Positions 19,387 through 40,905 are shown, counted from the first letter of the stretch. The stretch is 64,000 nt of DNA from an uncultured Streptococcus sp. (GCF_934196125.1 NZ_CAKPVT010000003.1), one strand, 5' to 3'. Translations and numbers: made by a program. The notes: generated from the letters alone by a model not told the origin.

Positions 19387-19596
19387 ATGGTATCAATGTT
19401 TGTAATAACTAGCATGATTTATTTTAGTAACTATGAGTTTATGTGGTTGTTTATTGTAGGTCTTTCTGCACTAAGTGTCTCTTTACTGATAGGAATACGT
19501 CACATGAGGTATAACCTAGTTGTAAAGAATATAACCGTAGATAATAGAGAGAGTTACAAGGTTTTAAAAAAATTAGAAAAAGAAGGTGTATTTTAA
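19387..19596 (+). CDS. Hypothetical small membrane protein
   Basis: 69-72 aa with two hydrophobic helices. Weak RBS; start is ambiguous (TTG 19378 or ATG 19387). Confidence 0.25.
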   Translation: MVSMFVITSMIYFSNYEFMWLFIVGLSALSVSLLIGIRHMRYNLVVKNITVDNRESYKVLKKLEKEGVF

Positions 19597-19598
19597 GA

Positions 19599-19733
19599 GT
19601 TCCATCGGGTAATGAAGCTGGAGCTTGGCAAGGAATGTGGATACCAGGTGGTTTTACAAATGCAGGAATCCCAGAAGCAGTTATTAATCAGATCCTCTCA
19701 GATGGATATAAAGTAATAGATGTATTTAAATAA
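19599..19733 (+). pseudogene. Remnant of the last about 45 codons of a toxin-like gene (VPSGNEAGAWQGMWIPGGFTNAGIPEAVINQILSDGYKVIDVFK*), with no start codon
   Basis: The open frame runs without ATG/RBS into a stop that sits 17 bp before the RBS of the downstream immunity-like gene. Its position mirrors the toxin C-termini of the cassettes downstream. Confidence 0.3.
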
Positions 19734-19750
19734 AGAAAGGCGGATAACTA

Positions 19751-20093
19751 TGGAGGAAATATTTCCAGGAAATGGTTTTGCAGTTGTAAAAAAAAAGATA
19801 ATACGTACACAATTGAATGGCCTCAAGGGCCATTTGACCAGACAGTTTCTTACCCAATAACCAAAGAATTGGCAGATAAAGCTTTCAGATTCTATGACGA
19901 TGCTTATGAAGTAATGATATATGCTGAGACTGGTTTGTGGCCAGAAAAAAATACAGAAGATGAAGAAAATGAACGAGTAAGAAAATTCCCAGAGTTATTG
20001 ATAAAAGTTCCTGATAATCAAGATTTATTTACAGAAGAAGAATTGAAAACATTGATACCTTTAGGAGAAAAAAGTTTATCAGAAGAAGAGTAA
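19751..20093 (+). pseudogene. Immunity-like small acidic protein interrupted by a +/-1 frameshift in an A9 homopolymer (19788-19796)
   Basis: RBS aaaggcgg. ATG at 19751 gives MEEIFPGNGFAVVKKK, then 9 A's. Beyond that the other frame continues DNTYTIEWPQGPFDQ...EELKTLIPLGEKSLSEEE up to 20093. Confidence 0.45.
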
Positions 20094-20105
20094 TTTAATA
20101 AAGTA

Positions 20106-20261
20106 AAAAGGCACTTTACTATCTGATTGGCGTCGGATAGTAAAGCCTTGACTAGTAAGAGTGAACTCACTAATCAAGTTGCCAATAGCTAACAAAAAGC
20201 TAGCTGTATTTATTGTACAAAAATTCAAAGGACTTTTCTAGTCTTTTTGAGTGTTTCTTAA
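20106..20261 (+). repeat. Cassette-junction repeat, copy 1 (12-bp-stem inverted repeat plus conserved spacer), ending at the toxin-module start
   Basis: Nearly identical to 21104-21260 apart from compensatory changes in the hairpin arms. Hairpin 20110-20147. Confidence 0.85.
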
Positions 20262-20837
20262 ATGTACAATCATTTCAGTAGCATGGTCAAAGGTGCTTCA
20301 TCCACGAAGATGGAGCATGTCGTGAAGATGATGCAGAATAGTGGTAGAAGTAATTATAAAAATATTATGACCCAAGCTAAGAATCTTCAAACTGCACAAG
20401 CGCTCCTAAATGAGAAAGCCAGTGGGGCTGGTGAATTTAATATAAATGAAATTCGACCAAAATTAAAAACAGATTCAGATACTGCATTTTTCTGGTCTGG
20501 TAGAACAGATGGTGTTGGAGGAGCTGACATAGCAGCAAATGTAGCAAAAGGTAAAGGCGGTACGACTTTAGAGTCAACAATAGCGAATAAAAATATTAAA
20601 ATGCCTGAATGGGATTTTAATAACCCAAGTTCAATGGAAGCTTGGGACTTGGCTTCAGGAGCTTATGCAGAACAAGTTTCTGGTCAGGTTCGTGCAGTAG
20701 TAGGTTCAGAGTTGAGACCTGGCAATATATGGGAAAATGTGGAGTTACCTCGATTAAAAAGTAATCCTAACGTAACTCAAATTACTACAATTGACCCAAA
20801 AACAGGAATTGAAAAAATCATTTTTGAAAGGAAGTAA
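20262..20837 (+). CDS. Orphan polymorphic-toxin C-terminal module 1 (conserved 56-aa N-terminal segment plus variable 135-aa domain of unknown activity)
   Basis: The first 168 nt are near-identical to the 21261 paralogue, then diverge sharply. No SD in front of the ATG (…gtgtttcttaaATG). Followed by a small gene with an RBS. Confidence 0.55.
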   Translation: MYNHFSSMVKGASSTKMEHVVKMMQNSGRSNYKNIMTQAKNLQTAQALLNEKASGAGEFNINEIRPKLKTDSDTAFFWSGRTDGVGGADIAANVAKGKGGTTLESTIANKNIKMPEWDFNNPSSMEAWDLASGAYAEQVSGQVRAVVGSELRPGNIWENVELPRLKSNPNVTQITTIDPKTGIEKIIFERK

Positions 20838-20842
20838 ATTAA

Positions 20843-21076
20843 ATGAAAATTACAGGGAGTAGCTCACACGTGAAATTTGATTTAGAAAATGGATATGCGG
20901 TGAAGGCAGACGGAGAAATGTTAGTAGGAGGGAAATTTGTAGCTTTTAAAGATTCAATGAAAAATTGGGAGCCACCACATGAAAATGAAGAACTTTCAGA
21001 AAAAGAAATTCAAGAAATTATTCAGCAGGTAAAAGAAAATACAAACGAAAATACTGTGCAAATTTCATTTGAATAA
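20843..21076 (+). CDS. Putative cognate immunity protein 1 (77 aa, acidic)
   Basis: Strong RBS aaaggaag. Starts 5 bp after the toxin-module stop. Confidence 0.5.
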   Translation: MKITGSSSHVKFDLENGYAVKADGEMLVGGKFVAFKDSMKNWEPPHENEELSEKEIQEIIQQVKENTNENTVQISFE

Positions 21077-21103
21077 ATAAGTAATATATTGAATTTAAAA
21101 ATA

Positions 21104-21260
21104 AAAAAGGCACTTTATCACTAGACTGGTAATCAAGTGATAAAGCCTTGACTAGTAAGCATACACTCATTAATCAAGTTGCCAATAGCTACCAAAAGAT
21201 AGCTGTATTTATTGTACGAAACTTCAAGGGACTTTTCTAGTCTTTTTGAGTGTTTCTTAG
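21104..21260 (+). repeat. Cassette-junction repeat, copy 2
   Basis: Hairpin 21109-21147 (GGCACTTTATCACT...AGTGATAAAGCC) followed by a conserved 110-bp spacer. Confidence 0.85.
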
Positions 21261-21884
21261 GTGTACAATCATTTCAGTAGCATGGTCAAAGGAGCTTCAT
21301 CCACGAAGATGGAGCATGTCGTGAAGATGATGCAGAATAGTGGTAGAAGTAATTATAAAAATATTATGACCCAAGCTAAGAATCTTCAAACTGCACAAGC
21401 GCTCCTAAATGAGAAAGCCAGTGGGGCTAATAATTTCAAATTTGGAAATAATTCAAAGAATCATTTGAAAAATGTAGAGGTGGTCAATACTAAAAGAGGG
21501 GTTGTTGGTGGTCATAATATGGATGATTTCAACAATGCACTTAAAAATCAAGGATTTAATCCAGAAGACTTGATTGTTTCAAAAAAACCACACCCAACTA
21601 TTGATGGCATTTATGAAGTTGAATACAAAATACCTAGAAAAGATATGGCTGGTAATGTTGCGGAACCAATATCTTATAAGAATATTGAAAAACCAAAAAC
21701 AGTTTATGCCCCAACAAAAATTAGTGACAATCAAATGTATGAATGGGGGCAGACTGCCATGAATAATGGGAAAATCCAACCAGACGGTCGAACAATTATT
21801 GGAACTTCTCCAAACGGTGTAAAATTTATAGGCTATTTAAATGACGCAGGAGAAGTAACTAATTTTTTCCCTGTATTAAATTAG
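21261..21884 (+). CDS. Orphan polymorphic-toxin C-terminal module 2 (same conserved 56-aa head, different 150-aa variable domain; possible nuclease-type fold)
   Basis: GTG where copy 1 has ATG, and no SD. The variable part (GGHNMDDF...KTVYAPT...NFFPVLN) is unrelated to module 1. Confidence 0.55.
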   Translation: MYNHFSSMVKGASSTKMEHVVKMMQNSGRSNYKNIMTQAKNLQTAQALLNEKASGANNFKFGNNSKNHLKNVEVVNTKRGVVGGHNMDDFNNALKNQGFNPEDLIVSKKPHPTIDGIYEVEYKIPRKDMAGNVAEPISYKNIEKPKTVYAPTKISDNQMYEWGQTAMNNGKIQPDGRTIIGTSPNGVKFIGYLNDAGEVTNFFPVLN

Positions 21885-21904
21885 AATGATTGGATTGTGA
21901 TACT

Positions 21905-22294
21905 ATGGAAAATGAATTTCAAATTTTAAATGATAAGAAAAGTATAGATCAATTAATGTTAACCTATTTTTCAATAGTAAGTGGAAAAGATTTAGAAAGA
22001 GCTTTATCTGCTTTTAAAGAAGAAAAAGGATATGGAATAGAAATAGTTTTTGTTTCTTTTAAAAATGATTTAGATGACTACGATATGATGCAGTTACCTA
22101 AAACATTAGATGATAATCATGTTTTAGTTGAATTAGGTTCTCCAGCTGTCGAAGTAGATCAAATAGCATATTTAGACTTTAAAACTTTTTATGATTATTT
22201 AGCTGAGAACGTAAAAAAAGAGATAGAAAAAAATTCAGAAGAAAGTGCATTAATAGAACTTTTAAAACAAGTTAAAATCAGTTTGGAGATATAG
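21905..22294 (+). CDS. Putative cognate immunity protein 2 (about 130 aa)
   Basis: Starts 6-20 bp after the module 2 stop (TTG 21890 or ATG 21905). Acidic, with no TM helices. Confidence 0.45.
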   Translation: MENEFQILNDKKSIDQLMLTYFSIVSGKDLERALSAFKEEKGYGIEIVFVSFKNDLDDYDMMQLPKTLDDNHVLVELGSPAVEVDQIAYLDFKTFYDYLAENVKKEIEKNSEESALIELLKQVKISLEI

Positions 22295-22626: not shown

Positions 22627-24981
22627 TTATGAATTTAAAGGACGTAATTGACCATTTTTCAAGGAAGGATCGTATCGAAACGAATATTTACCAACAAAGT
22701 TAATATGCTCAAAGAGAAGTGGTGACAACTTATTGATTTTCTCTTCTGAACAATCAAATCCTTCAATACGCATTTGGTCAATTACTCTTTCTAAATAAAG
22801 TGTATTCCAATAAATGATGGCATTTGTCACAATGCTGAGAGCAGTCAATTGCTCTTCCATTCCGTCAATATAGGTTTGATAAAGTTTGCCCTTTTTTCCA
22901 TAAAATATGTGGCGACATAATGTATGTCTTGCTTCTCCTTTATTCAGCTGTTCTAAAATCTGTCTTGCGTAAATTTCATCAGAGATATAGCGTAATTGAT
23001 GCTTTGTTTTATATACTTTTCCATACTCAATAATGGCTTTTCCTAGCTCTGTTGGTTGGCCATTGCGTTGAAGTGCTTTTGTTAATTCTATCGCATTCAC
23101 TTTTCCTGATTTCAAGGAACCTGCTACTCGAAGTATTTCACTCCAGTTTTTTTCTATTCGAGCAATGTTGATTTTATTTTGAGAAACTTCATTTAACATT
23201 TTATAGTCTGCAGTTAAGTCTATTCGCCAAAGTTTTGTTCCATGGTTGTTAGCAATTCGTGGGCTAAATTGGAACCCTAACAAGCCAAAAAGTCCAAATA
23301 CTAAGTCACTATATCCGGCTGTATCTGGCATGATTTGTTTCGGTTCTAAGCCACTTGTTTGATTTAAAAAACCATCCAATAAGTACAAAGAATCACGCAA
23401 TGTTCCTGGAACAACCATTCCATGAAAGCCTATATATTGATCAGAAACAAAGTTGTAAAATGTGATTCTACGACCACGGCCAAAATATTTTGGATTGCTT
23501 CTAGAATATAAGGAACGTTGTGGTGTGGTATAACGAATGCCATCGGCTGAAGCCATCTGATTCGTTCCCCATACACGAGAAGTAGGTAGTTCTTTGTATG
23601 CAGAAATAATTTTTTTATTTGTTGCTGACAGTGTATCCAATCGAACATATTGGTGATTGACGTACATTAGCCGATCATATTTTAAACTCTCGATTCCTTC
23701 TTTAGATACTGGAGAAAAAACAATATTACAGGCTTCTGCTAAAAGTACTGCTAGAACACTAATATCTAGGTGATCCATACGCGTATTCGATTCATTAATA
23801 TGGTGGAAACAGGAGGTTAAATCAAGTTGTTGATTTACCTCCAATAATAAATCTGGAAGATCAATTTTGGGCATTAATGCTTTTACGCGATTTTTGAACT
23901 GCTTATCTTCCTTATGTTCACGTGTTTTTCGGAGTTTAGACACGATAATTTTATCTTTGTTCTCCTGTTTTTCAATTCTAGCCATTTCAGAATGAGGCCA
24001 TTTTTTTATTGTTTCGTTATAAGACAGACTTAAAACTTCTTCTAATTGTTTTATTGCTTCAGTAGAAGATCTAGGTAATTCCAATTGAGAGAGTAAACTT
24101 TCTTTTTGCTGTTCCCACGTATCTTCACTGATTAAACAACTCATTGGATCAATGAATCTTTCACTTTTAGGTACAAATATATCATGTTTATTCAAGCTTT
24201 GGATTAGTAACTCAACACCTAGAATAAGCATACTTTGATTGACTTCATTAGGGTTAGAGTGAATATAATAAGCCCATTTCTTTGGTATATGATTTTCAAC
24301 AGATTCAAATTGTCTAAAGGTAATTGGCTTTGGAAATCTACGTCGAATTAAGTACCACACTGCCATACAATCTTCACCATAGTGGCCATTTTCTATTGTT
24401 AATGTTTCAATAATCAAAGGAATAAACTTTCGAATTTTACGATAAGATTGAATTAATTCTGCGATTGCAATAGGTTCTTGTTCATTTTTAACAAGTTTCT
24501 TTACTTGAAACACCGCATTTACAATATCCTCTGCTGGATATTGGTCAAACACTCGGCTTCGCAGACAATCATTTTCAATAGAATCGTCTAAAAATAGTTC
24601 AACTATTTCAGATAGAGTAAATGCTGCACGATCCAAATCTTTTAACGTTCGTAGTCGCTCTTTTGATTCTTTATTTTTTGCTCGTCTAAAAATTGACTCA
24701 TAATATTTTATTAAAGCTGTAAGTAATTCGTCTGTAGCAATCTTTTCATACTCATACACAAAAGCAACTAAAAGGGCTAATTTTTTCTGAATACTCATTC
24801 TTTGAATAAGGCTTGATTTGGCTTTAAAAGCGTAGGCAGCTAAATGTTTTATTTTCCCTTCAGGGATAGTTGAGAAATCCCATTTACTCGTATGAAACTG
24901 CTGGAATTCCTTTAATCGATGAAAACCACGAATGATTTCTTTCCTACTTTCATCAATTAAAGGAGCTCGTAAAATATCCAT
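22627..24981 (-). mobile_element. tnpA: Tn3-family transposase TnpA (784 aa), probably 5'-truncated; one-ended transposon remnant
   Basis: C-terminal Tn3 DDE-domain motifs (LTKALQRNG...WNTLY...GKYSFR). About 200 aa shorter than typical TnpA. No resolvase or res site, and no RBS context upstream. Confidence 0.75.
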
Positions 24982-25068
24982 TTTAGTGAATGCCCCTTGA
25001 ACAGGTGTACTCTAATGTGTTTAACGATGGATATTTAGGTTTATTCAAGTTAATGCTAAAATTGATCC

Positions 25069-25926
25069 TCAATCGTCATCGTCACCTAAAAGATTCAGAA
25101 TATCCAAAAATAAATTAATAAAGTCTAAGTAAATATCTATTGAGCTAGACATAGCTAACAGCCACCATGACTTTCCAGAATCAGGAACACCATCACGCAA
25201 CTTGTCTAAGAAACGTATTTTGATCATTTGATTATCATATGCACTATACAGTGTAAAGATAATAATGTCCGCAACTAAAATTACTATGTTCAGGAGACTA
25301 TTAGTATAATAGTGCTGAAAGAACCCGAATGCAATTAATGCCAATAATCCACCAAATAATGGTGTTCCCCATCCGGTTAAATTGTTTCTTGTTAGCATCC
25401 CAAACAATGCGCTACCCAAATAAATAATGATCGTCAGCACCAAAGCCTCAAAAATTAGGTTTCTGTCGTAAAAAATGGGTACAAGTCCCATCACTATCCC
25501 GACTGCTGTCGTGACCCCAATAGTAGCTGCCATGCCTAGTAGTAAAGAATCGGTCCCTTGTGCAAAAATCAATAAAATGAATAAGACAAAACAAAGTGCA
25601 AGAAATACTAGACCATGAGCAGAAAGAAGAATATTCAATAATTTCAAAAGCAACTCTGGATGCAAATACATATACAGTGACACCATTCCGGTATAGAATA
25701 ATTGGATCACAAAAATTAAATATACTTGAAGAACATGCCTCTGCAAAAATGAAACTTCATTTTCATCTGGTGCAAACTTGCTTGCTTTTTGCACTAAGCG
25801 AAATTTACCAACATAATTTCCATCCGCACTCCCCACACTGGCAACTTCTTTTGTCAAAGTACGCAGACTTTCTGAATAGGAACCAGCGGATGGTGCTGAA
25901 CGTTTTTGTATTTTACTTTTATGCAA
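25069..25926 (-). CDS. Bax-inhibitor-1/YccA-family-like polytopic membrane protein with an N-terminal soluble extension
   Basis: 285 aa with about 7 TM helices and an acidic C-terminal tail (GDDDD). Family assignment by eye only. Confidence 0.4.
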   Translation of the reverse strand: MHKSKIQKRSAPSAGSYSESLRTLTKEVASVGSADGNYVGKFRLVQKASKFAPDENEVSFLQRHVLQVYLIFVIQLFYTGMVSLYMYLHPELLLKLLNILLSAHGLVFLALCFVLFILLIFAQGTDSLLLGMAATIGVTTAVGIVMGLVPIFYDRNLIFEALVLTIIIYLGSALFGMLTRNNLTGWGTPLFGGLLALIAFGFFQHYYTNSLLNIVILVADIIIFTLYSAYDNQMIKIRFLDKLRDGVPDSGKSWWLLAMSSSIDIYLDFINLFLDILNLLGDDDD

Positions 25927-35958: not shown

Positions 35959-36247
35959 GCGATTATAAGTGAAAAAAACTTCATTTTTTCTCTTGACTCT
36001 AACGTAACGTTGTAGCAACTACTCAATTAAATTTAAAGTATACGCACCTTTTATAAATCCTTTTATATCAATGTTTACACTTTTAAAAACTTCAAGAAGA
36101 TGGACTCAAATCCTCTCATTTGGATAATATTGACACCAATTAACACCATAAAATAGACTAGTCAAGTTCTACCTTTTTAGGTAGAACTATTTTTATAAAG
36201 AGAATGATTTACTCAAAAAAAAGCGCCTATTACATAGGCACTCATAC

Positions 36248-36568
36248 TTAGAATCCGAAACTTCGCTCACTTTCTAATGAACTAACCTTTCCTTTTTTTA
36301 TTTTTGCCCCTTCTTTTTCTACCCATTTCTCATATCGCTGTATAAAACGTGTTTCTTCTTCATCTTTAAATCCTTCAAAAACAACTTCATCGATATCTTC
36401 ATCATTAAAATAAAAAACTTGTTCTGGATCTAACCCTTCAGGGTAACGTGCACCAGTATAATCAAAATAAACTTTCTGCCCCTCATGATCAATCAATGGT
36501 CCACGGTTTAAAATCATAATTTTTTGATTTCCTTCTGCTAAATAAACGGTACTTCCAATTGATAACAT
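36248..36568 (-). CDS. DUF4176-family protein (family recurrent in type VII secretion / LXG toxin loci)
   Basis: MLSIGSTVYLAEGNQKIMILNRGPLIDHEGQKVYFDYTGARYPEGL matches the DUF4176 pattern. Followed by a hairpin GCCTA-ttaca-TAGGC. Confidence 0.55.
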   Translation of the reverse strand: MLSIGSTVYLAEGNQKIMILNRGPLIDHEGQKVYFDYTGARYPEGLDPEQVFYFNDEDIDEVVFEGFKDEEETRFIQRYEKWVEKEGAKIKKGKVSSLESERSFGF

Positions 36569-36570
36569 AA

Positions 36571-36765
36571 TTAATTCTCCTTATTTTCCTTAATCTGATA
36601 TTTGATATTAATATTTGGAACAAAGTCATGATTCCACTCTGTTCCAACAGCAACAATAAGCAATCCAAAGAATCCAAAAATCACATATAGACCAACAAAT
36701 CCAATCGTAACCGTCGCAAAAATACCAACTATGATTAATAAAGCAAATATGCTACCGACAATCAC
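36571..36765 (-). CDS. Small two-TM membrane protein cotranscribed with the DUF4176 gene
   Basis: 64 aa. Its stop lies 3 bp from the DUF4176 start. Confidence 0.35.
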   Translation of the reverse strand: MIVGSIFALLIIVGIFATVTIGFVGLYVIFGFFGLLIVAVGTEWNHDFVPNINIKYQIKENKEN

Positions 36766-37008
36766 CGGTTTGATTTTTAATCATTTATGTATTGTAAAAG
36801 GGCTTCTTTTTCTAAAAAATGGTCGTTTAGTCGATTGTAATGGATTTAAACACCGTCCCCATTTTACACAGCCACGTCAAAGTGCTATAATGTTAAGGAT
36901 TACGAATTTAGCTTTGCTAGTTCAGTAGTTCAATGATTTGGAGCTTTAGGGTGTCCAAATCAATTAATCATGCTAAAATAAAAATAATCTTTACAAAGGA
37001 GACTACCC

Positions 37009-37725
37009 ATGGGACGTAAGTGGGCCAATATTGTTGCCAAAAAAACTGCCAAAGATGGTGCCAACTCTAAAGTTTATGCGAAATTTGGTGTTGAAATCTA
37101 TGTTGCTGCTAAAAAAGGTGAACCAGATCCAGAATCAAACTCAGCTTTGAAATTTGTACTTGAACGTGCAAAACAAGCGCAAGTACCAAAACACGTTATC
37201 GACCGCGCAATCGATAAAGCAAAAGGTAATACAGACGAAACTTTCGTTGAAGGTCGTTACGAAGGATTTGGACCAAATGGTTCAATGATTATCGTTGATA
37301 CTTTGACAAGTAATGTTAATCGTACTGCTGCTAACTTGCGTACTGCATTTGGTAAAAACGGTGGGAACATGGGAGCATCTGGTTCTGTATCTTACATGTT
37401 CGATAAAAAAGGTGTTATTGTCTTTGATGGTGATGACGCAGATAGTGTTTTTGAACAATTGCTAGAAGCTGATGTTGATGTTGAAGACGTTGAAGCAGAA
37501 GATGGTGTTGTTACTGTTTACACAGCGCCAACTGATCTTCACAAAGGGATTGAATCTTTGCGTGCTAATGGTATTGAAGAATTCAAAGTAACTGAACTTG
37601 AAATGATTCCTCAATCAGAAGTGACACTTGAAGGTGAAGAACTTGAGGTCTTTGAAAAACTTGTTGATGTTCTTGAAGATGACGAAGATGTTCAAAAAGT
37701 TTACCATAACGTATCAGATTTCTAA
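37009..37725 (+). CDS. YebC/PmpR-family transcriptional regulator
   Basis: 238 aa, [21 protein letters not shown]... Promoter TTTACA-17-TATAAT at 36860-36891. Confidence 0.9.
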
Positions 37726-37911
37726 TATCAGATATCGTTGATAAAATGATGGGATATTCAGCCTTTTTGAGCTGAATATCCTTTTTATTTTTGGTGATAA
37801 GCTAAGGCTATCTCGGTGATAAAAAATCTATTGGCAATTAGTGCGCATTTAGGATAGAATAAATTTATCACAGTAAAGAAACCTTAAAACTAATGAAAGT
37901 GAGGACATCAA

Positions 37912-38094
37912 ATGAAACAAGTCATTGTTGGAATTACAGGAAATATCAAAGAAATGCCAGCTATGTCAAGAATGTATTTTGATGCGTTTTCTCGTCATTT
38001 ATCAGATGGTGTTAAGGTAGCTGGAGGGGTTCCAGAATCTGTTATCGATAGAGTTTCTAGAGATAAATTAATAATTCGACAAATTACGGAGTGA
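37912..38094 (+). CDS. Hypothetical small protein
   Basis: 60 aa. RBS gtgagga. AT-rich. Confidence 0.4.
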   Translation: MKQVIVGITGNIKEMPAMSRMYFDAFSRHLSDGVKVAGGVPESVIDRVSRDKLIIRQITE

Positions 38095-38099
38095 TATAC

Positions 38100-38450
38100 A
38101 TGATTAAGATTCCAACTAAAAAAGATGATATGCTTGAAATTTACGAAGATAATGGTAAATATATATTAAAGTATCCAACATTCAATATTACTATGCCAGA
38201 GGTTACTCAAGAAATCTCTAAAGAATCTGTTGATAGTTACCTAAGAGGTGAACATACCGGAGAAGAGTTAATTAATTATGCAGCTTCCGGGAAGTGGAAA
38301 CCCTCTGTTGATTCGTGGCATGCCACTCGACAGTATCTTATTGAACATCCTGAAGATATTTTGGTTAATATCAAACACAATAAACAATATTTTTCAGATT
38401 TTGAATTTAATGATTTTCTTAAAAATCTCTGTTTAAGAAAATTAACATAG
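38100..38450 (+). CDS. Hypothetical protein (116 aa), translationally coupled to the previous ORF
   Basis: RBS ggag 9 nt upstream of ATG 38100. Confidence 0.45.
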   Translation: MIKIPTKKDDMLEIYEDNGKYILKYPTFNITMPEVTQEISKESVDSYLRGEHTGEELINYAASGKWKPSVDSWHATRQYLIEHPEDILVNIKHNKQYFSDFEFNDFLKNLCLRKLT

Positions 38451-38485
38451 CACAACTAGATTCCATAGGTGTTATTAAAGGGAAT

Positions 38486-38752
38486 TTGGAATTATTACTT
38501 GTTGATACTATTCAATGGATGGAAGAAATTGAATCTATCCATATAGAATTACTTCAAGAAAAAATTAATAATTATATTCACTATCTCGAAAGCAAGCAAT
38601 ATGTTGAAAAGTATGGCGATAACTTCAAAGAAAAGGTCATCCATATTACCTTTCAATATGCTCCTTCAGATAATGGTCTTGCTTTTCTAGTTCAAGTTCA
38701 AAAAGTTTTGCAATCAACTGATATGAGCTTGAAAGTAACTTTACAAGATTGA
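38486..38752 (+). CDS. Hypothetical protein (about 88 aa; immunity-like?)
   Basis: TTG/ATG start is ambiguous. Acidic helical protein. Confidence 0.35.
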   Translation: MELLLVDTIQWMEEIESIHIELLQEKINNYIHYLESKQYVEKYGDNFKEKVIHITFQYAPSDNGLAFLVQVQKVLQSTDMSLKVTLQD

Positions 38753-38929
38753 TTTCAAGGCGCTTTTGCGTCTTTTTCTCTCATTCTTCAATCGTAATCT
38801 TCTTTTATGGTAAACTATTTGCAAAGCACAGCTGAATTTCAATTCTTTTTCTCATTCTTTACTTGCTATTGATAGTTACATTCTCTTTAACGCTCTGCGA
38901 TTTTCAAAAAAGACCGTAATCATGGGTAG

Positions 38930-39208
38930 TTGGTCATTGACTACAAGGGTGGGGGAATGGCCAATCTCTTTAAAGACCTGCCCCACTTGCTTGGAACGAT
39001 TACCAACTTGGATGGGGCGCAAGCCATGCGTGCTTTGACTTCAATCAATGCTGAAATTCACCGTCGTGAACGCATATTTGTGGCAAATGGGGTTAACCAT
39101 ATCAATCAGTACCAGAAGAAATACAAACTGGGTGAGGTTGCTGAGCCACTACCGCATTTGTTCTTGATTTCAGATGATGAAAACCTTGATAAGAATTGGC
39201 AAATCTGA
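38930..39208 (+). pseudogene. Remnant of an EssC-like FtsK/SpoIIIE-family secretion ATPase with an internal deletion
   Basis: [21 protein letters not shown] (the pre-Walker-A segment) is joined directly to ...[24 protein letters not shown]...[10 protein letters not shown] (the Walker-B region). The Walker A GxxGSGKS is missing. Confidence 0.5.
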
Positions 39209-39290
39209 AGTTAGTTATCATCGCTTCTCCAGTTTCATCAATGCAAGCTAAATCATGTTTGTTTTTGGCAATGTCAATACCAACATAGAG
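39190..39290 (-). pseudogene. IS110-family transposase N-terminal remnant (about 33 codons)
   Basis: [33 protein letters not shown] with RBS aaagga. The listed 93-aa ORF is a chimera with the antisense strand of the EssC remnant. Confidence 0.5.
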
Positions 39291-39439
39291 CATAAGTTTC
39301 TGATTCCTTTCCAAGTGATTAGCGACTGTTGTTCGTTCCACGCACTCTTTGCCTTGTATTCTTACACGAAATAAAACGTCCAAGCGTTATCATTCTCATT
39401 ACCAATAAAAAAAAGAGCTGTGGTTAGAGTCTCCTACAA

Positions 39440-39892
39440 ATCGTCTAATAGCGATATAACATCTTACGATGATATCGGTGGTCATTCAACACAAGTTGTT
39501 CAAGGAACGACAACCGCTACTTAATTGGAAAATACAATGAAGAAAATGCAGACAATACTGTTGACATCAATTATACAAATGAAAACATCACTCAAATCTT
39601 GACAAATCTAAATGATGTCAAATATGATTTCAAGATTTTTGATGCCCCAACTGTTAATTCTGTCATTAAGAATCAATGTTTGGATAATTTGAAAACCATT
39701 GATTTGGAATCAGAAGAGCAACCATACATCTATTTCATCTTTGGACAAGACCAAGAAGATTTACAAGAATTTGTTAATAAACGTTTGAAAGAATTCCAAG
39801 AAGACGGTACATTGACAGAACTTGCTGAAAAATACCTTGGTGGAGATTACACGCCTTCTGCTGATGATTGGAAAGCTCCAACATCAGATTAA
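39440..39892 (+). pseudogene. Fragmented amino-acid ABC transporter substrate-binding protein gene (C-terminal part)
   Basis: ...DVKYDFKIFDAPTVNSVIKN...EQPYIYFIFG...GTLTELAEKYLGGDY spread over at least two frames. Confidence 0.5.
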
Positions 39893-39987: not shown

Positions 39988-40905
39988 ATGAAAGAGGACA
40001 TATCTATGAAATTGAAAAAATTATTTGGATTAGCTAGTGTAGCTTTGACGTCAACTGTTTTGTTGGCAGCGTGTGGAGGTTCTTCAAGTTCATCATCTTC
40101 TGATGATAAAACACTTAAAGTTGGTGTCATGACTCTAGATGCTGCAACAGAACCACTTTGGGATAAAGTTGAAGAATTGGCCGAAGAAAAAGGTGTTAAG
40201 ATTGAACTTGTTGAATTTACAGACTACAATCAACCAAACGAAGCCCTTCAAAATGGTGAAATTGATGTCAATGCTTTTCAACACAAATATTTCTTGAGCA
40301 ACTGGAATTCTGAAAATGATGGAACTTTGGTAGAAGTTGCTGATACGCTTCTTAGCCCAATTCGTCTCTTCTCAGGAGCTGACAGCGACGGCGATGCAAA
40401 ATACACTGACGTTAGTGATATTCCAGATAAAGGAACTATTTCAATTCCTAATGACGCTTCAAATGAAAGCCGTGCCCTCTACCTTCTTCAATCTGCAGGT
40501 TTGATTGAATTAGATGTTTCTGGTGATGAATTGGCTACAATTAAAAACATTTCATCAAATCCGAAAAACTTAGATATTAAAGAAGTTGATGCTGCTCAAA
40601 CTGCTTCTACTTTGACATCAGTTGATGCTGCAGTTATTAACAACTCTTATGCTCAAACTGCTGATGTTGACTATGACACAACACTTTATAAAGAGGTTGT
40701 TGATGAAAATTCAAATCAATGGATTAACGTTATTGTAGCCCAAAAAGGTTGGAAAAAATCAGATAAAGCTGATGCTATTAAGACTTTAGTTTCTGTTTAC
40801 CAAACAGATGAAGTCGGGAAAATCATCGAAGAAGCTTCAGACGGTGCTGATATTCCTGCATGGGATGGCGCAACAACATCTTCATCATCTTCTGATGACG
40901 ATTAA
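39988..40905 (+). CDS. metQ: Methionine ABC transporter substrate-binding lipoprotein (NlpA/MetQ family)
   Basis: Lipobox LLAAC followed by a Ser-rich linker. 305 aa. Confidence 0.9.
   Translation: MKEDISMKLKKLFGLASVALTSTVLLAACGGSSSSSSSDDKTLKVGVMTLDAATEPLWDKVEELAEEKGVKIELVEFTDYNQPNEALQNGEIDVNAFQHKYFLSNWNSENDGTLVEVADTLLSPIRLFSGADSDGDAKYTDVSDIPDKGTISIPNDASNESRALYLLQSAGLIELDVSGDELATIKNISSNPKNLDIKEVDAAQTASTLTSVDAAVINNSYAQTADVDYDTTLYKEVVDENSNQWINVIVAQKGWKKSDKADAIKTLVSVYQTDEVGKIIEEASDGADIPAWDGATTSSSSSDDD

Follow-up and report, generated by a model that had tools for sequence, protein, structure and literature searches.

Positions 36248-39892 of the 64,000-nucleotide stretch of DNA analyzed here (the window; uncultured Streptococcus sp., GCF_934196125.1, NZ_CAKPVT010000003.1) contain two blocks of gene remnants related to variable-region DNA of type VII secretion system b (T7SSb) loci, separated by an intact housekeeping gene, yebC. 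To the right of yebC lie a 60-codon open reading frame (ORF) ending in the tail of a T7SSb toxin, a toxin immunity gene (EI) in two pieces, an 83-codon slice of the gene for the ATPase EssC (essC′), a stub of an IS110-family element and part of a native substrate-binding protein (SBP) gene; to the left lies a small cassette with an orphan DUF4176 gene. Both remnant blocks have a GC content of ~31%, versus 37-44% in the flanks. These remnants become interpretable when set against the native gene order of S. equinus, in which the syntenic genome CP070238 carries, in succession, genes for HIGH_NTase, MerR/TipAS, YebC, Peptidase_C26, an SBP, an M20D amidohydrolase, another SBP, MetQ, MetN and MetI.

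The remnant block to the right of yebC

The 60-codon ORF (37912-38094, plus strand) is composed of the 5′ end of a Peptidase_C26 gene and a T7SSb toxin tail. Its codons 1-41 correspond to the N-terminus of the native Peptidase_C26 gene that directly follows yebC in S. equinus (tblastn against the Peptidase_C26 gene of S. equinus L095, 7094-7216: 63% over 41 aa, E 6e-15), and its codons 38-60 are the final 23 codons of a T7SSb toxin gene. The toxin of the metagenome contig L097 has a C-terminus (…GGVPESVIDRVSRDKLIIRQITE, then stop) identical to this tail, and the toxin tails of L036 and L024 match it at 50-54%. The junction falls in 14 nt of shared microhomology coding for GGVP (38021-38034); DNA homology to L097 and to another contig, L098, begins exactly at 38021, and the DNA to the left is native, with a promoter-like site (TTGGCA-18-TAGAAT, 37831-37860) on the Peptidase_C26 side. 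Because a Peptidase_C26 N-terminus and a toxin tail occupy one ORF, we read it as a deletion chimera. The full catalytic domain of Peptidase_C26 is absent here, the first 41 codons being all that is present, fused to the toxin-derived codons. A Pfam search with the toxin C-terminal domain produced no match, and a search of PDB sequences with the same domain produced only spurious matches to NHL repeats. The stop codon of the chimeric ORF overlaps the start of the next ORF.

That ORF and the one following it are, by their homologs, the two halves of a single immunity gene. In relatives fetched by means of the EssC slice, one protein of 214-221 aa spans the homologs of both the 119-aa ORF and the DUF6572 ORF, and in S. 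parasanguinis, S. taoyuanensis and E. columbae it is encoded directly 3′ of a large toxin gene, 4-5 kb past essC. The first half (38100-38450, plus strand) encodes the EI N-terminal, toxin-neutralizing domain and shares 51% identity with residues 3-112 of a 221-aa immunity protein, the one encoded after the toxin gene of S. parasanguinis L024. The second (38450-38752, plus strand, its ORF running from a TTG at 38486) encodes the C-terminal DUF6572/EIC-CR domain (PF20212, E 3e-25), is 71-78% identical to the C-termini of the L024 and L019 immunity proteins and keeps the YxxxD motif of EIC-CR (QYAPSD). The halves are severed by an inactivating 1-nt deletion in an A-run (38420-38425, plus strand), evident in alignments with L024/L036 and L097/L098: relative to L097/L098, one A is missing after 38420, and the EI domains thus stand in different frames. 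Both domains and the YxxxD motif are therefore present in the window, but frame-split rather than as a single polypeptide. The deletion is common to all the alleles of the species that we examined, and a frame-corrected query returned an intact 217-aa protein (P0236) that is 96% identical. Upstream of EI is the matching toxin 3′ end, the 23 codons identical to the L097 toxin tail, and the rest of the toxin gene is gone. In E. columbae (L019) the EI N-domain is Imm59 and the toxin a TNT NADase.

The gene is followed by an intergenic sequence (38753-38913, plus strand) that is conserved after the immunity gene in relatives, with 87.5% identity to E. columbae L019 17531-17689 and 97% to L098 up to window position 38909; a weak terminator (38757-38774) lies within it. 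Contig L097 has a 735-aa toxin and an intact immunity gene, and in L098 a toxin 3′ end and the immunity gene lead into the 160-bp intergenic sequence seen here and then into an N-truncated essC′. From 38021 on, these two contigs are 97.4-98% identical to the window in DNA sequence, L098 (97.4%) being the closest relative. The first-pass annotation, made from the window sequence alone, had described three small coupled ORFs of unknown function at 37912-38752 and asked whether they were immunity candidates. The three ORFs do exist, but a toxin-tail chimera and a split EI account for them, and only one of the three, the EI N-domain, is an immunity domain in the strict sense; a novel coupled operon is ruled out by the S. 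equinus synteny and the intact relatives. As a separate observation, the T7SS locus of E. columbae L019 is 87-94% identical in DNA sequence to window positions 38700-39177, and L097 has the accessory-gene layout of E. columbae but a different toxin tip and immunity N-domain. At the level of sequence, this likeness between E. columbae and streptococci indicates recent inter-genus exchange together with tip-swapping of modules.

Beyond the intergenic sequence, and after a 16-nt filler (38914-38929) with no homology to L019 or L098, an ORF spanning 38930-39208 (plus strand) contains the essC′ slice, 83 codons of the D1 ATPase domain (38930-39177, plus strand). The slice matches positions 505-587 of the 1296 of TIGR03928 (E 9e-46; 156 bits against a cut-off of 778), the corresponding values for other families being E 1e-13 for EccCa and E 0.07 (10.7 bits) for FtsK PRK10263. 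An origin from FtsK or SftA is ruled out by these values, and the EssC-like identity proposed by the first-pass annotation for 38930-39208 came through the test that the annotation itself had named. At the protein level the slice is 82-94% identical to streptococcal and enterococcal EssC proteins encoded in esxA-essC clusters and aligns without gaps to residues 691-773 of the 1471-aa EssC of S. parasanguinis L024; its DNA is 94% identical to essC of E. columbae and 93.5% to that of S. caballi over exactly 38930-39177. Walker A of D1 (GTTGSGKS, 662-669) is missing, since the slice begins 22 residues beyond it, and the right end of the slice falls inside Walker B (LFLISD, cut before the E), whose DE reads DD at the right junction. 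The proposal of an internal deletion that fused pre-Walker-A and Walker-B segments is ruled out by these gap-free protein and DNA alignments; the piece is instead cut at both ends. By sequence it derives from EssC, but it is far from a functional one (~1470 aa, with FHA domains, transmembrane helices and three FtsK/SpoIIIE ATPase domains that have Walker A and B).

From which copy of essC would such a slice have come? L098 continues past the 160-bp intergenic sequence into an N-truncated essC′ that begins near residue 257, and N-truncated second copies of essC (starting at residues 470-690), 4-6 kb downstream of a full-length essC, are frequent in S. sanguinis, S. parasanguinis and S. oralis. 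A downstream, N-truncated copy (essC′) is the most likely source of the slice, rather than core essC. Since it lies downstream of the immunity gene, where L098 carries its essC′, we take it to mark a variable-region effector module and not secretion machinery. In the window it is cut at both ends, lies downstream of effector and immunity genes and is capped by the IS110 stub, with no full-length essC in the region; an orphan EssC truncated at both ends is known in S. gallolyticus (PMC13253547), and by comparison the window slice, at 83 codons, is much shorter. Across loci L021-L093 (for example L059, 16367-19066, and L068, 8037-11878), truncated essC copies and tandem partial essC duplications are widespread, in S. 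caprae and S. panodentis as well. A protein search with the EssC fragment returned short fragments only, without genomic context. A scan of genome contigs with the slice did not return the window's own species, the best match being 93% at the protein level, and the representative of the species probably lacks the slice.

When the core proteins of S. parasanguinis L024 were compared by tblastn with the whole 64-kb window, the 83-codon EssC slice was the only match; esxA (WXG100), esaA, essA, esaB, essB and the N-terminus of essC left no trace. A functional T7SSb locus, with its core genes and a full-length essC, is not present within the 64 kb. Of the first-pass suggestion that a T7SS had been dismantled here, the link to T7SSb therefore holds, but the dismantling of a whole T7SS at this place does not follow, there being no core-gene trace.

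The IS110-family stub (39178-39448, minus strand; PF01548 and the N-terminus of NF033542) is truncated on both sides. It consists of codons 1-38 (coding sequence 39180-39293) preceded by ~155 nt from the non-coding 5′ end, with 71-80% DNA and 68% aa identity to IS110 elements of Lactococcus plasmids, whose transposase has 386 aa; a complete DEDD transposase (340-390 aa) and both element ends are lacking here. The first-pass annotation had correctly recognized a stub of an IS110 transposase gene but had given its size as 33 codons. The allele L004 retains ~125 nt more of the IS110 end, and the Lactococcus element is likewise longer. Because the L004 end is longer, the window junction at 39448 is itself a deletion junction, and a precise insertion of IS110 into the SBP gene is ruled out. 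Right of the stub, where the window has the SBP remnant and metQ, L004 (1-7120) has a different accessory island, at least 7 kb long; its genes are a split MerR, aldo-keto reductase, CMD, cupin, CxxCxxCC, HAD, Crp-like and LysR, and the contig was seen in two samples. This MerR was tried as the one displaced from the DUF4176 site (see below) and rejected, the sequences being unrelated.

What follows the stub in the window is the 3′ part (~148 codons) of the native SBP_bac_3 gene upstream of metQ (39449-39892, plus strand), with a frameshift near 39520 and a family match over the C-terminal fragment 39599-39892. Once frame-corrected, it is 72-78% identical to SBP_bac_3 proteins of 228-261 aa encoded directly upstream of metQ in S. 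equinus and L096. A full-length SBP would occupy a single frame of 260-280 aa; the copy here is 5′-truncated with one frameshift, a degraded gene but not the shredded one of the first-pass annotation.

Variation among alleles

We compared ~25 metagenome contigs carrying the same locus (loci L001-L018), which were retrieved by exact identity of the DUF4176 or the YebC protein and are therefore biased for those two genes. The alleles form a series of decreasing length. L004 is the longest and the window type follows; L012 and L016 lack 39042-39346; L009, L013 and L017 have additionally lost 38789-38843 by a deletion between 14-nt direct repeats, and in L009 and L013 there is a second frameshift in the EI N-domain. 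In L010, a 53-bp deletion fuses the membrane ORF left of yebC to DUF4176. Distinct single-nucleotide polymorphisms in the remnant ORFs number 0 synonymous to 16 non-synonymous, compared with 27 to 18 in the flanking HIGH_NTase and metQ genes (Fisher p = 1.4e-5); ~20% of random changes are expected to be synonymous, and the counts are small. All the DUF4176 polymorphisms are non-synonymous, and the ORF at 38100-38450 has 0 synonymous and 3 non-synonymous changes, with an indel in 3/15 alleles. There is no purifying selection on the remnant ORFs; the counts are small, but their direction is clear.

The cassette to the left of yebC

A low-GC cassette (36017-36772) consisting of a DUF4176 gene and a small membrane ORF stands in place of a MerR/TipAS gene, as synteny with L017 and S. 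equinus reveals: in strain L017, of the same species, the DUF4176 cassette is lacking and a gene for a 170-aa MerR protein stands between window positions 36016 and 36773, and in S. equinus CP070238 the HIGH_NTase gene and yebC flank MerR/TipAS. The DUF4176 gene (36248-36568, minus strand), whose presence had been noted in the first-pass annotation, is a full-length, orphan gene for a small Ltc-type T7SSb toxin chaperone, with the complete domain (PF13780, E 4e-25, 88 bits, profile 1-74/74) and a match to PDB 9dcs (E 1.2e-13). DUF4176 proteins are toxin-specific T7SSb chaperones named Ltc, which are encoded beside a cognate LXG-type toxin and bind the disordered middle domain of that toxin (PMC12478183, PMC12482557); the earlier suggestion that DUF4176 might be an immunity candidate is consequently replaced by that of a toxin chaperone (PMC12478183). 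Its linkage to T7SS in related strains was borne out, homologs with 55% identity being located 5-9 kb downstream of essC in S. lactarius, S. parasanguinis and S. oralis, where they adjoin genes for DUF3958 (Lap-like), toxin and DUF443 immunity proteins, at the end of such arrays. ORF calls and family searches found no cognate toxin, Lap or immunity gene inside the cassette.

Directly upstream of DUF4176 is a 64-aa ORF with two predicted membrane helices (36571-36765, minus strand) and no family match. It has a weak likeness (E 0.006) to one transmembrane segment of the DUF443 proteins found beside DUF4176 in relatives, and in L045 an analogous 71-aa transmembrane ORF precedes the DUF4176 gene. 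The ORF is possibly the vestige of a membrane immunity protein, perhaps a truncated DUF443 protein. No consensus promoter was found upstream of this minus-strand pair, and a terminator-like hairpin lies 3′ of the DUF4176 gene (36243-36221, minus strand).

Two other rearrangements were seen around this cassette. In the L007 contig, window position 36015 is joined to 25926, in the Bax1-I/Tn3 segment described below, skipping 10 kb of essential genes; a chimeric assembly or a second copy of Tn3 may account for this join, and the left boundary of the DUF4176 cassette falls at the same point, 36015/36016. In L002, a block resembling a conjugative element (RepA_N, PrgI and a surface protein with a GbpC domain) is inserted at ~36855, between the membrane ORF and yebC.

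Flanking genes and a second remnant region

The gene that separates the two blocks, yebC/pmpR (37009-37725, plus strand; NF009044, E 8e-106), is intact and native, with 98% aa identity to S. equinus, and its terminator lies at 37751-37782. It is not part of the debris and was missing from the first-pass annotation. The native metQ begins past the right end of 36248-39892. Its product, the MetQ lipoprotein (39988-40905), has 305 aa in the window, whereas nearly every other protein of its cluster has 299, and the exact 305-aa sequence was found on only one other contig. No Rfam family matched within 35.5-40.5 kb, the IS110 5′ end included. The 90% clusters of the window's proteins take in S. lutetiensis, S. 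equinus, S. gallolyticus, S. macedonicus and S. alactolyticus, and exact-sequence look-ups assign the window to an uncultured member of the Streptococcus bovis/equinus complex, a gut Streptococcus.

A second T7SS-type remnant lies at 19593-20093, and the connection that the first-pass annotation had drawn to orphan toxin cassettes at 19.6-22.4 kb holds. Downstream of gatB, 19593-19733 encodes a second toxin tail (64% over 47 aa to the toxin end of S. parasanguinis L049), and a 74-aa ORF (19869-20093) encodes an EI N-domain homolog (49%) without DUF6572. Two orphan toxin cassettes follow (20092-22294), one with a 191-aa toxin (weak ADP-ribosyl cyclase match) and Imm74, the other with a 207-aa EndoU toxin and a 134-aa partner; their 5′ leaders are 91% identical (20092-20429 and 21092-21428). 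A Tn3-family transposase gene (784 aa) and a gene for a Bax1-I family membrane protein occupy 22627-25926. This Tn3 segment is missing in most other strains, in which the gatB-side remnants run directly into an MFS gene.

Discussion

Starting from the identity of every piece, the positions of the junctions, the intact relatives and the allelic series, all of which were observed directly, we consider it probable that this is horizontally acquired T7SSb variable-region DNA in an eroded state, inserted around native housekeeping genes. To the right of yebC, a module of the MSE-ExT type (toxin, EI and N-truncated essC′, in that order) would once have lain inside a larger accessory island and would have been cut down by illegitimate deletions at short microhomologies, in an order of events that we can only reconstruct. 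One such deletion would have joined the native 5′ end of Peptidase_C26 to the last 23 toxin codons; in another, codons ~257-690 of essC′ would have been lost, leaving the filler at 38914-38929. Codon 773 of essC′ would have become joined to codon 38 of the IS110 element, with loss of the later codons, the IS110 5′ end would have been joined to the middle of the native SBP gene, and a 1-nt deletion would have split the immunity gene. To the left of yebC, a separate 0.75-kb cassette with the orphan DUF4176 chaperone gene would have replaced the MerR gene. We infer that the region can neither secrete nor intoxicate, that most if not all of it has lost its function and that its decay continues.

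Several observations weigh against this reading. Our view takes in 64 kb of the genome, and a T7SS elsewhere could let DUF4176 and the immunity ORFs serve it. In most alleles the reading frames of DUF4176 and of the EI N-domain are intact, and expression of the chimeric ORF is possible, judging by the promoter-like site and the overlapping stop and start. In addition, the polymorphism counts are small, and retrieval conditioned on DUF4176 or YebC biases precisely those genes. Lastly, no larger T7SS block was present at the site among the sampled alleles, and the decay of an island in place is unproven as against the arrival of a piece that was already broken.

Could no T7SS module ever have been at this site? 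A pre-broken piece of ~1.4 kb, comprising the toxin tail, EI, the essC′ slice and the IS110 stub, might have replaced native genes after DNA uptake, through recombination that was illegitimate or facilitated by homology, and the 0.75-kb DUF4176 cassette might have done likewise, independently. Both blocks are indeed small, of low GC content and in the place of native genes (Peptidase_C26 to SBP in one, MerR in the other), the left junction falls in a 14-nt microhomology, the DNA identity of 94-98% to other taxa, including Enterococcus columbae, points to recent transfer, and the want of a fuller T7SS block among the alleles fits as well. However, the longer IS110 end of L004, with the island of at least 7 kb to its right, makes the window structure a deletion derivative, and further deletions form a graded series within the species. 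We regard capture of such fragments as rather unlikely.

If eroded module DNA is what remains, might one part of it have been kept for use? The ORF at 38100-38450 could be driven by the captured Peptidase_C26 promoter, translationally coupled to the chimeric leader, and neutralize the cognate toxin injected by T7SS-positive neighbors as an acquired defense, the rest being debris. In S. suis, the EI N-terminal region alone neutralizes the toxin and DUF6572 is dispensable for immunity (PMC12558993). The N-domain frame of the window is open over homologous residues 3-112 and is preceded by TTGGCA-18-TAGAAT and the overlapping stop and start; the cognate toxin gene is found at 98% DNA identity in other metagenome contigs, and a second toxin-tail and EI N-domain remnant exists at 19.6-20.1 kb. 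Yet the polymorphisms of this ORF (no synonymous and three non-synonymous changes), the indel in 3/15 alleles and the second frameshift in L009 and L013 tell against it, and we think orphan immunity unlikely. That the promoter-capture deletion has made a new unit that expresses a stand-alone EI N-domain in a gut streptococcus without T7SS, an acquired anti-T7SS defense gene directed at a toxin that circulates, at 98% DNA identity, among T7SS-positive neighbors, is more doubtful still; the polymorphism data do not favor protection by the EI N-domain, and this is the only mildly novel possibility.

Equally doubtful is a working T7SSb elsewhere in the genome for which these loci would be satellite "spare part" regions, the DUF4176 protein serving a distant toxin and the essC′ and toxin-tail pieces feeding module switching by recombination. 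T7SS-positive streptococci commonly carry LXG modules that are satellites or incomplete, along with truncated copies of essC (PMC13492133), and S. gallolyticus subsp. gallolyticus, a related species in the complex, has a T7SS. On the other hand, 23 toxin codons and 83 essC codons are far below the functional cassettes of relatives, the immunity gene is frameshifted, alleles keep losing sequence, the remnants show no purifying selection, no core gene is present in 64 kb, and S. pasteurianus and S. macedonicus, of the same complex, are without T7SS. As to the first-pass version, in which the EssC piece was a core ATPase gene with its Walker A deleted that marked a dismantled complete T7SS locus, the fragment is unquestionably of EssC type, but its gap-free match between Walker A and Walker B, its position downstream of the immunity gene and not of essB (exactly where L098 has its N-truncated essC′) and the lack of any trace of esxA, esaA, essA, esaB and essB make that version highly improbable.

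The reading as eroded T7SSb variable-region DNA has consequences for annotation, in that small "hypothetical" ORFs beside core genes can be chimeras or split pseudogenes derived from the eroded cargo of a secretion system, and a short EssC-like match is not by itself the sign of a former secretion machine. The allelic series documents how T7SSb effector DNA has been lost step by step, through microhomology, in a gut bacterium of the S. bovis/equinus complex, and the near-identity to Enterococcus and other streptococcal modules speaks for inter-genus traffic of cassettes. If the orphan immunity domain were functional, it would provide defense against T7SS toxins without ownership of the weapon, a prospect against which the present evidence leans.

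How do these remnants compare with known systems? The window DUF4176 gene encodes a full-length small domain like that of the Ltc chaperones (PMC12478183, PMC12482557, PDB 9dcs). Unlike them, it has no neighboring toxin, Lap or immunity gene, and it lies on the opposite strand and across yebC from the module remnants, in a cassette that some strains lack.

Orphan immunity islands are known as acquired interbacterial defense clusters against T6SS in Bacteroidales and as T7SS immunity arrays in toxin-less staphylococci. The window resembles these in keeping an immunity reading frame without its toxin in a gut commensal that meets toxin producers, but its immunity gene is frameshifted, shows no sign of purifying selection and is still being deleted in some strains.

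In the MSE-ExT modules of S. suis, the EI immunity protein carries EIC-CR (= DUF6572) and its gene adjoins a truncated essC (Bai et al., 2025; PMC12558993). The window differs from these modules in that 23 toxin codons are fused to the 5′ end of a native gene, EI is frameshifted between its domains, essC′ is reduced to 83 codons and there is no T7SS core locus within the window. It nevertheless shares with S. suis MSE-ExT/EI the order of toxin, EI (a variable N-domain followed by EIC-CR with YxxxD) and truncated essC, and intact modules resembling MSE-ExT are found in S. parasanguinis, E. columbae and the metagenome contigs L097 and L098. We conclude that the locus represents the ordinary decay of a known type of system, an MSE-ExT/EI/essC′ module accompanied by an orphan Ltc chaperone, both reduced by an IS110 element and by deletions at microhomologies, amid conserved housekeeping genes, rather than a new system.

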